Below are positions 15,988 through 42,796 of a DNA stretch of 57,649 bases, in pieces. Position 1 is the stretch's first letter. Each line of letters starts with the position of its first letter. A program made the translations under genes and the position numbers. The notes under the pieces were generated by a model. The model made no database searches. It saw only the letters and a list, made by a program, of their open reading frames with translations, and was not told the origin of the DNA. The stretch spans positions 1 to 57,649 of the forward strand of contig RDXV01000010.1 of NCBI GenBank assembly GCA_004292695.1. Reading direction: 5' to 3'. Source of the stretch: Nostocales cyanobacterium (GTDB lineage: Bacteria > Cyanobacteriota > Cyanobacteriia > Cyanobacteriales > Nostocaceae).

Positions 15988-16422
15988 ATGAGCGACGAAA
16001 AAATTAGACAGATAGCATTCTACGGCAAGGGCGGTATCGGTAAATCTACCACCTCTCAAAACACCCTCGCAGCTATGGCTGAAATGGGTCAACGCATTCT
16101 CATCGTAGGTTGTGACCCCAAAGCTGACTCTACCCGTTTGATGCTTCACTCTAAGGCTCAAACTACAGTATTACACTTGGCTGCTGAAAAGGGTGCTGTA
16201 GAAGACCTAGAACTCCATGAAGTAATGTTGACCGGTTTCCGTGGTGTTAAGTGCGTTGAATCTGGTGGTCCAGAACCCGGTGTAGGTTGTGCAGGTCGTG
16301 GTATTATCACCGCTATTAACTTCTTGGAAGAAAACGGTGCTTACACAGACTTAGATTTCGTATCCTACGACGTATTAGGTGACGTTGTATGTGGTGGTTT
16401 CGCTATGCCTATCCGTGAAGGT
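15988..16422 (+). CDS. nifH: nitrogenase Fe protein NifH, 5' segment (codons 1-145), interrupted
   Basis: [22 protein letters not shown] Walker A ...[11 protein letters not shown]. It then diverges and stops at 16423; the remainder of nifH resumes at 23155. Confidence 0.9.
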
Positions 16423-16709
16423 TAAGGGGGGTTGTTTAGGGTTTTTGTTGGTGCAATTGTTTGAGGAATTTTGTTTTTTTGTTCCCTATTTTTGCCCTGG
16501 GATTTTTTGGGAAAATGGGGTTTTTGTTTGGGTTTTATGTCTTGGTTTTACCCTATTTTTTACCTTGTGTCAAGGGGGATACATGATTTTTGATAAATGG
16601 GTTACTGATTTTTTGAAACAGTTCTAACAGTTGAATGCAAATACCTATCATAATTTCAGCTAATAGCTACCACAACATTGATGGGTATTTAAGCAGATAT
16701 GATATCACT

Positions 16710-17663
16710 CTACTTTTTTGGGAATGTCCTATAAGTTAAGTCCCAATTTCCATTTGACATTGTGATAAAGTCTTCTCGACAGTTGCGATTGGAAAACTGA
16801 CGCAAAATTTCACCACTGATATATTGAGTATTCATCAAAAATTTACCAAGATCCAAGCGTGAAAATTTTTGAGCTTCATACCGACTTTTAACATAGTCTG
16901 GTAATTGCTGAACTACGAATAGTAGAGTTTCTCTATTGAGATTAGGTAAATAATCAGCAGTTTTATTCACCAAATTTTTAAGATTATGCCCGTAGTCCTC
17001 CTTTTTATTTTTATCTTTTTCATTTTTAGGTTTTTTATTTGCCAAAGTTTCTTCATCAACACCTTTAGCCATTAGAGAACCTTTCAAAAGTAACTCAGTT
17101 GAAAGACAACAGTTTTGAATTACGGCGTATTTATTGAATGAGCCTAGAAGTATTGCCGCTGCTGCTTCAAGGTGCTGTTTTGCTAGATACCACCATTCCA
17201 CTGTTTTATTTGGCAGGTTTCCCATTTTTTCAACATCATCGAGTCCATACGCAAAATCCATCAGATCGATAACCTGGTCGAAGAATTTTAAGCCAGTCTG
17301 TTGATCATTAAACAGCCATTGTTTTTGTATATCAGGTACGTCTATTAGAAAATCTACTGGATTAATTGCTGGTGAGCCATAAATAAGTGGTATACGTAGA
17401 GGAAAAAAGACATCTCGAAATATGAATGCTCCGATATGTATAGGTGGCATTACCAAATCTGTTAAACGATATAGTTCTTTGTATATCTGATTTACGGCAT
17501 TGAATAGCGGATCATGCTCAAGTATAACACTGCTACCAGGATTCAACCGCTGTGCAATTATTAAGTAAGTGGCTTGTGGACGTTGAAATGGTTCTATCCC
17601 TTTTTGAATAAGCTCGTCATCTACTTCGATTACAAGTTTCATCAAATCAATTTCTTCTGTCAC
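16710..17663 (-). CDS. hypothetical protein (cargo of nifH element)
   Basis: 317-aa ORF with no confident family assignment; divergent from the 17833 ORF. Confidence 0.45.
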   Translation of the reverse strand: MTEEIDLMKLVIEVDDELIQKGIEPFQRPQATYLIIAQRLNPGSSVILEHDPLFNAVNQIYKELYRLTDLVMPPIHIGAFIFRDVFFPLRIPLIYGSPAINPVDFLIDVPDIQKQWLFNDQQTGLKFFDQVIDLMDFAYGLDDVEKMGNLPNKTVEWWYLAKQHLEAAAAILLGSFNKYAVIQNCCLSTELLLKGSLMAKGVDEETLANKKPKNEKDKNKKEDYGHNLKNLVNKTADYLPNLNRETLLFVVQQLPDYVKSRYEAQKFSRLDLGKFLMNTQYISGEILRQFSNRNCREDFITMSNGNWDLTYRTFPKK

Positions 17664-17832
17664 TTCTGCACTCCGAGCAAAAATTTACACTACACAGTAT
17701 AATTGTATATGATGTTGCAAGCAAGTGTTTTCTTACAGTTGCTTCGGGAAATTTGATTGCATGGGTGGTTTTTTGTCTATCCTATTTGTCAAATTAAACT
17801 TTTCACTAAAGTAAACATGAGGATCTTCTATT

Positions 17833-40163: not shown

Positions 40164-40205
40164 AAATTAATAAATTAATAAATTAATAAATTAATAAATT
40201 AATTT
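40164..40205. repeat. tandem 8-mer (TAAATTAA)x5
   Basis: Immediately 3' of the recombinase stop inside the nifK element. Confidence 0.8.
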
Positions 40206-41587
40206 TTTAACACTTCTGCTATTTGATGCTTCGCTAACAATTCTTTTAGTTTTTCATTTTCTGCCTTCAATTTTACTATTTCCTCTTTTAGTTCATTTAA
40301 TTCATCTTTTTTTTCTACCGCTTGTTTAATAGCTTTTTTTCGGTTTTCTAAACCAAACCATCTTTGATAAGTGTCTGTATGTTGTTGTACAGAATGACCA
40401 AGATTATCTGCTGCTGCTTTAATTGGCACTCCCATTAAATGCGCTCTAATTGCCCAAGCGTGACGTAAATCATAAGGTGAAAAACCTAAATCAACTTTCT
40501 GAAACCAGTCAGATAAAGCAGCACTTAACGTGTGCATACTTTTTGTATCATCACGTCCATTGATATAATTTTTCACCAATTTAACAATTTCAGGATTTTT
40601 CAGATCAAATAAATCTATCCATGAGTCATATAATGGTAATGCTTCTCTATCACCAGTTTTACACAATTCATGAACTTTCCAAGTTCTATTTTCAGACAAC
40701 CAATGATTAAAGTCAGGATATAAAAAAAGCTCTCTAGGACGACAACCATAAGCGGCTAACATTCCATAAAACCATCTAAAAACTAACCAGTAATCTGCTT
40801 GTTCTTGTCTTTTGTTACGTCTATTAATTGCGTATATTTCCCATTTATAAAAACCTGTCTCAATGGTGGATTCATCAGGAACTTTACGAGCTTTAGGTTT
40901 AGGACGTTTAAATTTTAAAATTAAAGGAATATTAAATTCTTTACAGAATAAATTTAGAGCTATACAAGTGCGATGTTTCCAACTAGGAGTATTATTAGAT
41001 AAAGAATCAAATTGTTTTTTAATATTTTCTGGAGTTGCTAACATATCCCGATCAAATTGATTTAACACACCGAGATAATTTTTAAAAAATGTCCCTTCAG
41101 ACTTAATATTTCTTTGCCTAGAGCTAAAATATATATGTTCATAATTATCTAATAATTCACCAAAGGTTTTCTCTGTTTTGTCCTGCTTATTACCTAAATA
41201 CTTCTGATTCCATTGAAACTGCTGTCTAGCAATTAATTTTCCTAATTCATTCGCTTCTTCTTCCGCAGTTTTTAAACCATAAAAATTAGCAGGTATTCCT
41301 AAAGAGATTTTATATTGTTTTTTGCCGTTTCCCTTAGTATCAATATCGTTAGGTTTGAGAGGTAATGTTGCTTGCAGATATAAACTACCAGCTACTTTCA
41401 CTATAGAGACTCGTGACTTAGCTGCTTTTAACCGTGAATTAACTTCTTTGAGTGCAACATCAAATTGAAGGTCAGTATGAGCAGCTTGTTTTTCCAAATG
41501 TTTCATAGTTCCCATGTATGTACCGTCTGTAGTGGCAGTTTTGACGGTAGATGCTTGATAACCCTTGTGTAGCTTGGTTTTTGGCAT
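40199..41587 (-). CDS. xisA: XisA-family site-specific tyrosine recombinase (nifK element)
   Basis: 462 aa with a C-terminal RHAWAIRAHLMGVPIKAAADNLGHSVQQHTDTYQRWF. Confidence 0.85.
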   Translation of the reverse strand: MPKTKLHKGYQASTVKTATTDGTYMGTMKHLEKQAAHTDLQFDVALKEVNSRLKAAKSRVSIVKVAGSLYLQATLPLKPNDIDTKGNGKKQYKISLGIPANFYGLKTAEEEANELGKLIARQQFQWNQKYLGNKQDKTEKTFGELLDNYEHIYFSSRQRNIKSEGTFFKNYLGVLNQFDRDMLATPENIKKQFDSLSNNTPSWKHRTCIALNLFCKEFNIPLILKFKRPKPKARKVPDESTIETGFYKWEIYAINRRNKRQEQADYWLVFRWFYGMLAAYGCRPRELFLYPDFNHWLSENRTWKVHELCKTGDREALPLYDSWIDLFDLKNPEIVKLVKNYINGRDDTKSMHTLSAALSDWFQKVDLGFSPYDLRHAWAIRAHLMGVPIKAAADNLGHSVQQHTDTYQRWFGLENRKKAIKQAVEKKDELNELKEEIVKLKAENEKLKELLAKHQIAEVLKN

Positions 41588-41740
41588 TGCTTATTTTTTA
41601 CTTAAATACCATGAAACTTTGAAAGTAAAAATACTGCTGTTTACCAGAAACCCTTTTTAGGTAGTTCCAATAACAACAGTATTTCTGTAAGTTCACAATA
41701 CCATGAACAACCACGTATAACAGATATTTTCGGTGATGAC

Positions 41741-42796
41741 TTAGGTGCATTCATTACCAACGCTAAAAACGCTGGTTCTGTTCCTAAAGATTTACCAGTT
41801 CCCTTCGCTCATACTCCTAGCTTCGTAGGTTCTCACATCACCGGTTACGACAACATGATGAAGGGAATTCTTTCTACCTTAACAGCAGGTAAAAAGAAAT
41901 CCTCCAGCAATGGCAAAATCAACTTCATGCCTGGTTTTGATACCTACTCAGAAAACACCCGCGAATTAAAGCGGATTGCTTCTTTAATGGGTATTGACTA
42001 CACAGTTCTTTCTGACACCAGTGACTATGTTGACTCACCTAACGATGGTGAATTCAATATGTATCCCGGTGGTACTAAGTTAGAAGATGCAGCAGATTCC
42101 ATCAACGCTAAAGCTACCGTTGCTCTGCAATCTTACTCCTTGACCAAAACTTGCGAATACATCGCTAAGGAATGGAACCAAGACGTTTGTGTTTCTCGTC
42201 CTTGGGGTATCAAAGGAACTGACGAATTCTTAATGAAAGTCAGCGAATTGACTGGTAAAGCAATTCCTGAAGAATTAGAAATCGAACGTGGTCGTGCAGT
42301 TGACGCAATGACCGACTCCCACGCTTGGGTACATGGTAAGCGCTTCGCTATCTACGGTGATCCTGACCTAGTTTACAGTGTAGTTAGCTTCATGTTGGAA
42401 TTAGGCGCTGAACCTGTACACATTTTGGTTCACAACACCAACAAAGAATTTGAAAAAGAATTGCAAACTCTCTTAGATTCTAGCGAATTTGGTAAAGACG
42501 CTAAAATCTGGGGTGGTAAGGACTTGTGGCACTTACGTTCCTTGTTATTCACCGAACCCGTAGACTTATTAATCGGTAACTCCTACGGTAAGTACCTGTG
42601 GCGTGATTGTGGTGTACCCTTAGTAAGAATCGGTTATCCCATCATGGACCGTCACCACTACCACCGCTATGCAACCATCGGTTACAAAGGTGTAATCAAC
42701 TTGTTGAACTGGGTTGTTAACACAATCTTTGAAGAAATTGACCGCAACACCAACGTTGCTGGTAAGACCGATATTTCTTACGACTTAGTACGCTAA
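41741..42796 (+). CDS. nifK: NifK 3' segment (codons 161-511)
   Basis: LGAFITNAKNAGSVPKDLPVPFAHTPSFVGSHITGYDNMMKGIL...; in frame with 39454..39933 after element removal. Confidence 0.9.
   Translation, partial: LGAFITNAKNAGSVPKDLPVPFAHTPSFVGSHITGYDNMMKGILSTLTAGKKKSSSNGKINFMPGFDTYSENTRELKRIASLMGIDYTVLSDTSDYVDSPNDGEFNMYPGGTKLEDAADSINAKATVALQSYSLTKTCEYIAKEWNQDVCVSRPWGIKGTDEFLMKVSELTGKAIPEELEIERGRAVDAMTDSHAWVHGKRFAIYGDPDLVYSVVSFMLELGAEPVHILVHNTNKEFEKELQTLLDSSEFGKDAKIWGGKDLWHLRSLLFTEPVDLLIGNSYGKYLWRDCGVPLVRIGYPIMDRHHYHRYATIGYKGVINLLNWVVNTIFEEIDRNTNVAGKTDISYDLVR

Follow-up and report, generated by a model that had tools for sequence, protein, structure and literature searches.

The question raised by the nif locus of contig RDXV01000010.1 is whether a nitrogenase operon in which all three structural genes, nifH, nifD and nifK, are split by inserted DNA has decayed, or is assembled by programmed DNA excision of the type known from heterocysts. 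The stretch analyzed (hereafter the window) is the entire 57,649-bp contig of a GenBank metagenome-assembled genome (MAG) labelled "Nostocales cyanobacterium", with proteins TAE61083.1 to TAE61101.1; the recombinase encoded in the nifH element falls in a cluster (identity of at least 90%) whose other members are Sphaerospermopsis proteins. The junctions were read directly and the open reading frames (ORFs) were listed, followed by a scripted repeat search and deletion of each element in silico. Element lengths are given as one repeat copy plus the insert. Heterocyst-type programmed excision, in which the three elements are each cut out by their own XisA/XisC-family recombinase and nifHDK is restored, is in our judgement very probable.

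A sequence-only reading of this DNA had proposed that the three genes are each interrupted, by elements of about 6.7, 14 and 1.8 kb. The interruptions were confirmed to the base, with lengths of 6,732, 13,990 and 1,807 bp for nifH, nifD and nifK, respectively (Table 1). The borders are marked by the short direct repeats CCGTGAAGGT (a 10-mer), TACTCCG and TCGGTGATGAC, each of which occurs exactly twice in the window. The repeats begin at nucleotides 426, 1357 and 470 of the respective genes, in codons 142, 453 and 157; the break codons 145, 454 and 160 given by the sequence-only reading hold as the last codon covered by each repeat, not as the codon in which it starts. The repeats themselves were correctly named in that reading; the GGAT extension of the nifD repeat is found at the left copy only, where the full 11-mer GGATTACTCCG is present (25097).

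Deletion of the elements in silico left open frames of 295, 501 and 511 amino acid residues for NifH, NifD and NifK, as had been predicted. In comparison with the NCBIfam nifH, nifD and nifK equivalog models as references, the rejoined proteins scored 473, 871 and 901 bits, respectively, each matching end to end in a single stretch and far over the cut-off.

Table 1. Positions of the split nif genes, their interruption elements and associated features in the window
Feature	Position	Strand	Size	Remarks
nifH 5' segment	15988..16422	+	codons 1-145	closed by left repeat copy CCGTGAAGGT at 16413-16422
nifH interruption element	16413..23144		6,732 bp	variant nifH-429 of Hilton et al. 2016
nifH-type XisA-family tyrosine recombinase	21614..23035	-	473 aa	TAE61083.1; Pfam XisAC_N and XisAC_2nd
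nifH 3' segment	23145..23607	+		opens with right repeat copy at 23145-23154, ends at stop codon
nifD 5' segment	23745..25107	+	codons 1-454	closed by left repeat copy TACTCCG at 25101-25107
nifD interruption element	25101..39090		13,990 bp	variant nifD-1357/1355
tRNA-Leu(CAA) and tRNA-Glu(CUC)	28769-28935	-		directly abutting, in nifD element; ARAGORN and Rfam (49.5 and 68.5 bits)
nifD-type XisA recombinase	36789..38090	-	433 aa	TAE61096.1
ORF between nifD-type xisA and right border	38255-38905	-	216 aa	KxDG-like motif EKYDGTN
nifD 3' segment	39091..39240	+	49 codons and stop	opens with right repeat copy at 39091-39097
nifK 5' segment	39454..39933	+	codons 1-160	closed by left repeat copy TCGGTGATGAC at 39923-39933
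nifK interruption element	39923..41729		1,807 bp	variant nifK-469; recombinase gene and flanks only
nifK-type XisA-family tyrosine recombinase	40199..41587	-	462 aa	TAE61099.1
Conserved xis ATG-to-core region	41588..41729	-		arms AAATAC/GTATTT at 41629-41634 and 41679-41684
nifK 3' segment	41730..42796	+		opens with right repeat copy at 41730-41740, ends at stop codon

In each element the recombinase gene lies antisense to nif, and the claim that it is placed near the right border was borne out for nifH (109 bp) and nifK (142 bp). In the nifD element the distance is 1,000 bp, not about 118 bp, because a 216-aa ORF intervenes; its product weakly matches an RNA-ligase family of PHROG (phrog_548, E = 3e-5) and nothing in Pfam, and an ORF of the same length is found at the same place beside the nifD-type xis of Sphaerospermopsis SIO1G2 (L010 12804-13454). 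Pfam domains PF27551 and PF27132 (XisAC_N and XisAC_2nd) are recorded in precomputed annotation on the K- and H-type recombinases. The D type, which lacks a direct record of this kind, shares 76% identity along its whole length with a protein of A. variabilis ATCC 29413 (P0068) that was taken as the XisA ortholog, and its orthologs in six related loci (L005-L010) carry both domains. Our local copies of Pfam and NCBIfam yielded only sub-threshold integrase matches (weak PF00589 for all three recombinases), and no match to the Resolvase, Recombinase or Zn_ribbon_recom domains of XisF-type serine recombinases was obtained for any of the three in these scans. Among the related loci compared, a serine-type nifK element was found in Gloeotrichia only.

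The motifs G(L/C)RP.E, PYDLRH, LGHS and HT..YQ.W are present in all three recombinases, and the box I Arg, Tyr-x-x-Arg, His and the nucleophile Tyr are invariant among them. The C-terminus of a profile built from the three paralogs aligns, as PYDLRH...LGHS...Y, with PHQLRH...LGHS...Y of Pyrococcus XerA (PDB 4a8e). XisA/XisC recombinases are marked by a Tyr where box II usually has His. Inactivating changes, which would have spoken for dead recombinase genes, were found in none of the three, and the catalytic residues are intact throughout.

The three recombinases are 46-51% identical to one another. When neighbouring recombinases were taken from six related loci for comparison, the proteins grouped by target site and not by genome: identities within a type were 59-86% for K, 76-92% for D and 84% for H, as against 41-50% between types. 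The window recombinases themselves share 84% (H, with Anabaena 4-3), 76-87% (D) and 59-86% (K) with their counterparts. The proposed specialization of the paralogs for different sites is therefore supported (59-92% within, 41-50% between types), and had already been published (PMC4874684, Fig. 4 text). The family is very common, since relatives are encoded in at least 587 stretches of species-representative genomes. An A. cylindrica-type integrase (P0071) was considered as an ortholog of the nifH type and rejected, being a fourth paralog type with 48-49% identity to the H and D types of the window. A site core shared by nifH and nifK (TATC-S-GTGA-W-G) was likewise rejected: the best match, 9 of 12 positions, equals the median of random nifH/nifK window pairs.

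In each of the four carriers examined, rejoining gives a full-length, in-frame nifK, and the ratio of nonsynonymous to synonymous substitution rates (dN/dS) of rejoined nifK against them is 0.08-0.19; for the K, D and H recombinases the values are 0.10-0.18. In each of these comparisons both lineages carry the element, and the low values thus indicate that purifying selection acted on both the interrupted gene and the recombinase during the time in which the gene was split. Such selection on a split gene would make sense only if the gene is restored, which argues against decay. The interpretation of these elements as programmed elements of the heterocyst type, and not as decay, was put forward in the earlier reading; it is well supported by the anatomy of the locus, frame restoration, intact catalytic residues of the recombinases, orthology to catalogued variants and purifying selection.

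That the elements are excised, and when, we infer by analogy with experiments on orthologous elements in other strains. Excision of nifH-429 and nifD-1357 was shown in heterocysts of A. cylindrica, in the case of nifH1 by sequencing, polymerase chain reaction (PCR) and quantitative PCR (bioRxiv 10.1101/629832), and the nifD element of PCC 7120 is excised by XisA according to papers that cite the original work. By this analogy, the vegetative-cell genome would hold a separate element inside each of nifH, nifD and nifK, each with its own XisA/XisC-family recombinase. On heterocyst differentiation, each recombinase would recombine the short direct repeats that flank its own element; the element would be released in circular form, and the open reading frame would be precisely restored. 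A functional nifHDK operon would then exist in heterocysts only.

The opposite possibility is that integrative mobile elements, never removed in a programmed manner, have inactivated the operon and that the cluster no longer fixes nitrogen. Such decay would fit the selfish-looking cargo of the larger elements (a toxin-antitoxin-like pair, Uma2 nucleases and, in one protein, a weak match to DUF4351), and also the absence of the rejoined proteins and of the nifK junctions from the public collections searched. It is hard to reconcile with six gene pieces that are intact and rejoin in frame, with the low dN/dS of rejoined nifK between element-carrying lineages, with recombinases that are under purifying selection and retain their catalytic residues, with the intactness of all other nif genes in the window, and with the excision of orthologous elements in cultured diazotrophic strains; we consider it highly unlikely. 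A chimeric contig, with foreign fragments joined into the nif genes by assembly or binning, might be suspected of any MAG, and some related contigs do end within the nifK element, at a tandem repeat rich in AT. Independent assemblies, however, are 100% identical to the window over 15718-25389, a range that includes both nifH junctions and the left nifD junction; all three are covered by a contig of run SRR12360555, assembled differently and also 100% identical. Other independent contigs, including one from a second GenBank assembly, are 100% identical over 40015-45054, across the right nifK junction. As two isolates with complete genomes, Okeanomitos TIOX110 and Nostoc PCC 7524, moreover show the same split architecture, misassembly is excluded and an artefact is effectively refuted.

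More room is left, small as it is, for elements that are excisable but not strictly tied to heterocyst differentiation, so that excision would be stochastic, stress-induced or an occasional phage-like mobility, and restoration in heterocysts only one outcome. In A. cylindrica, excision was also measured at a low level in vegetative cells (bioRxiv 10.1101/629832), related elements are known in genes without a role in nitrogen fixation and in three non-heterocystous cyanobacteria (PMC4874684), and the nifK module was inserted at least twice, in both orientations. The lack of an NtcA site upstream of the xis genes points the same way. We nevertheless regard such loose coupling as unlikely, because excision was strongly enriched in heterocysts in every experimentally tested case and because only heterocysts need the three genes targeted here.

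Several points weigh against programmed excision in heterocysts as the explanation of this locus. The exact rejoined NifH, NifD and NifK were absent from a collection of 15 billion proteins, and neither the nifK circle junction nor the rejoined nifK junction had an exact match in JGI metagenome contigs; both results weigh little, since heterocyst DNA is a minority that assemblers collapse. None of the three xis genes has a canonical NtcA site (GTA-N8-TAC) upstream, and the 11 occurrences of this motif in the window are close to the 9.9 expected, so that the window gives no sign of heterocyst-specific regulation. The literature yielded no experimental test, in any strain, of the tyrosine-type nifK-469 variant. 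Heterocyst formation by the host is assumed from taxonomy, and no heterocyst-differentiation genes were found in the 57,649-bp window.

The nifK element is reduced to the recombinase gene and flanks of about 420 bp, and its relatives allow a closer look at how such an element may recognize its target. At least nine genomes carry an element of the nifK-469 type; in our scan of a genome collection the matches listed were mostly paralogs, and the class B nifK types were not among the matches listed. In six of the nine carriers (the present MAG, Okeanomitos TIOX110, a Cuspidothrix MAG, Sphaerospermopsis SIO1G2 and two other MAGs) the element measures 1.8-2.0 kb and xis lies at its 3' end in antisense, and in the other three (Nostoc 7524, Gloeotrichia GP01 and Anabaena 4-3) it lies in sense at the 5' end. 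The two layouts match two clades of the recombinase. In all nine, the crossover core is separated from the ATG of xis by 148-152 nt, and this interval, when read in the frame of xis, aligns nearly gap-free across both classes, with a conserved AAATAC...GTATTT inverted repeat within it. One class has TCACCGA as its core and the other has T(C/T)GG(T/G)GA, the central trinucleotide being reverse-complemented between the clades (ACC vs GGT/GGG, xis frame). Both copies of the repeat agree exactly in any one genome and differ between genomes (TCGGTGA, TTGGTGA, TTGGGGA), as an identity requirement in the region of strand exchange would predict. In the rejoined gene the left repeat lies within the near-palindrome AAGTTATC-GGT-GATGACTT, of which seven of the eight arm pairs are complementary.

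The interval between core and ATG is a putative binding arm for the recombinase or a regulator, together with the xis promoter. An RNA structure upstream of xis was considered for it and rejected, because the RNAalifold consensus was weak (-8.4 kcal/mol, covariation +0.86) and the main helix never varies; AAATAC...GTATTT, as an inverted repeat at the DNA level, is more likely a protein-binding site. The simplest reading of the two layouts is that one attP-xis module entered the same symmetric nifK target in both orientations. The nifK recombinase would use the near-palindromic core, and the asymmetric centre of that core would set the orientation of insertion, since the same module of core, 149 nt and xis is found in both orientations in different lineages. 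Whether the 1.8-kb element is indeed a minimal attP-xis cassette directed to a near-palindrome, with opposite orientations of the two clades at an identical position set by the core centre, is a matter on which our judgement is evenly balanced. If true, it would provide a natural case of a core overlap sequence that sets insertion orientation, and of repeated colonization of one block of nif codons. The conservation of the core-149 nt-xis module in two orientations is a modest new detail.

An AT-rich tandem repeat, (TAAATTAA)x5, at 40163-40203 overlaps the stop codon of the nifK-type xis, and three independent short-read contigs end within it at 40174. A mixture of excised and unexcised DNA was considered as the cause of these breaks in related contigs and rejected, because they lie at this repeat and not at the direct repeats. 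In Gloeotrichia echinulata GP01 (L007 9383-18669), nifK is in three pieces: a tyrosine-type element of about 1.9 kb is inserted at 469, and a second break, near codons 425-429, is due to an element carrying a large serine recombinase (16680-18227).

The larger elements carry additional genes. The cargo of the nifH element includes a UPF0175/DUF3368 toxin-antitoxin-like pair and a methyltransferase. The pair (18637-19390, minus strand) consists of a DUF3368 (PIN-like) gene and a small upstream ORF, the latter annotated as UPF0175 on an independent contig (L089), and the same pairing occurs in the nifD element of Okeanomitos (L006 17705-18519); it may help to stabilize the elements. The nifD element contains two Uma2 genes, the two tRNA genes and genes for a Band 7 protein, GrpB, a histidine kinase, an Alr1449-family protein and a protein with a weak DUF4351 match, in addition to the RNA-ligase-like ORF. 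Both tRNA genes would leave the chromosome upon excision of the nifD element; no tRNA genes were found in the retrieved parts of the relatives' nifD elements. Three genes of the Uma2 family (putative restriction endonucleases) are present in the window: two, adjacent and convergent, lie at the left end of the nifD element (25459-26699), and the third lies outside the elements (4190-4726). Uma2 genes are also held by nifD elements of relatives (L005, L009 and L010). A perfect 31-nt palindrome, GATCCCCGACTTCTT-A-AAGAAGTCGGGGATC, is located at 39030-39060, within the nifD element and 30 nt from its right end. With up to two mismatches allowed, the 15-nt arm recurs as a dispersed repeat, in eight copies over the window where 0.03 would be expected; further copies lie at 9288/9336, 51202/51251, 26732 and 31516, and three of the sites are inverted pairs. 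These repeats look like a small family of the repetitive extragenic palindromic (REP) or miniature inverted-repeat transposable element (MITE) kind.

Apart from the three interruptions, the locus is an ordinary cyanobacterial nif cluster, with nifB, fdxN, nifS and nifU upstream and a Mo-nitro_C ORF, nifE, nifN, nifX and others downstream. All remaining nif genes in the window are intact, and fdxN is without interruption. The ORF of nifB (11147-12826, plus strand) is listed with 559 aa, and the NifB model match begins only at residue 119; the true start is probably downstream of the listed one, or else the protein has an unusual N-terminal extension. The intergenic regions 12844-15807 and 45024-47763 are filled by runs of 7-nt tandem repeats with units that include AATTACG, GGTAATT, CCTGTTC, AATAGGG, CTCCTGA and CCTATTC, which we take to resemble the short tandemly repeated repetitive (STRR) sequences of heterocystous cyanobacteria. 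A gene resembling zinc-dependent alcohol dehydrogenase (ADH) and quinone oxidoreductase (9415-10360, minus strand) is listed as two overlapping ORFs, one with ADH_N and ADH_zinc_N and the other with ADH_zinc_N_2; this split is a frameshift (a pseudogene or a sequencing error) without insertion of an element.

The present case adds one lineage, an uncultured relative of Sphaerospermopsis, to the heterocystous cyanobacteria in which nitrogenase genes are assembled by developmental DNA excision, and the general picture of such excision is unchanged by it. In surveys based on MAGs, nifH, nifD or nifK found split in a member of Nostocales should be counted neither as a pseudogene nor as absent. The residual value of the locus lies in the compact nifK element and its two orientations; as a minimal system, this element lends itself to the study of site recognition by XisA-type recombinases, of its directionality and of control specific to heterocysts, all of which are poorly understood.

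The known systems were catalogued by Hilton, Meeks and Zehr (2016, PLoS One; PMC4874684), who described 101 interruption elements in 38 genomes and named the variants by position. In that survey nifH-429 has the repeat CCGTGAAG and an antisense tyrosine recombinase exactly 109 bp from the element end, and was found in Anabaena sp. 90, A. cylindrica PCC 7122, A. circinalis, PCC 7108, Nodularia CCY9414 and Nostoc PCC 7524; nifD-1353/1357, with the repeat (GGAT)TACTCCG, is the classical XisA element present in most genomes surveyed; and nifK-469, with the repeat ATCGGTGA and a tyrosine recombinase, was found in Nostoc PCC 7524 only. The elements described here match nifH-429, nifD-1357 and nifK-469 in repeats, positions, recombinase class, orientation and the 109-bp edge distance.

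The closest system is that of Nostoc sp. PCC 7524, where the same three genes are split at the same positions (nifH-428, nifD-1353 and nifK-469; Table B). The core repeats (T)CCGTGAAG, (GGAT)TACTCCG and ATCGGTGA match, each element has a tyrosine (XisA-type) recombinase, and these are orthologous to the present ones (78% identity for the D type and 62% for the K type). PCC 7524 differs in an additional fdxN element, in a nifD repeat of 11 bp instead of 7 bp, and in a nifK element of 5.6 kb with xis in sense at the 5' end, compared with 1.8 kb and xis antisense at the 3' end here. The 11-kb nifD element of Anabaena/Nostoc PCC 7120 occupies the same nifD site, with the TACTCCG core within GGATTACTCCG, has xisA antisense near the nifK-proximal border and shares an Alr1449-family cargo gene (Table C, PMC4874684). 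In contrast, the present element is 14 kb long, carries other cargo, with two tRNA genes and a histidine kinase among it, and has only 7 of the 11 repeat bases duplicated; its xisA is 1,000 bp and not 118 bp from the border, with the RNA-ligase-like ORF between. Excision was shown for PCC 7120, whereas the element here is known from its sequence. The 5.7-kb nifH1 element of Anabaena cylindrica ATCC 29414/PCC 7122 (Anacy_2116) has the repeat CCGTGAAG at nifH 429 and an antisense tyrosine recombinase 109 bp from the right edge, as found here; the present nifH element, again described from DNA alone, is larger (6.7 kb), with partly different cargo and an exact repeat of 10 bp.

The sequence-only reading had regarded three recombinase/site pairs in one operon as unusual. 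This was not supported, because PCC 7524 has all three and nifH, nifD and nifK of Anabaena sp. 4-3 are also split by these same variants. Far heavier fragmentation is known in Calothrix PCC 7103 and in Rivularia PCC 7116, which has four elements in nifD alone (PMC4874684), and in Calothrix sp. NIES-4101 (PMC11249958). The last resembles the present locus in having recombinase-bearing elements in nifH, nifD and nifK, from which the genes are restored during heterocyst development, and in CnXisD3, an XisA ortholog at the same nifD site; it differs in a nifBHDK fragmented into 13 pieces, in the need for inversions, in mostly serine recombinases, and in a serine-type nifK element near codon 425, in contrast to the tyrosine-type element at codons 157-160 here (PMC11249958). 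The present locus is one more instance of a system already known, and its combination of elements, reported before from PCC 7524, is also present in Anabaena 4-3.

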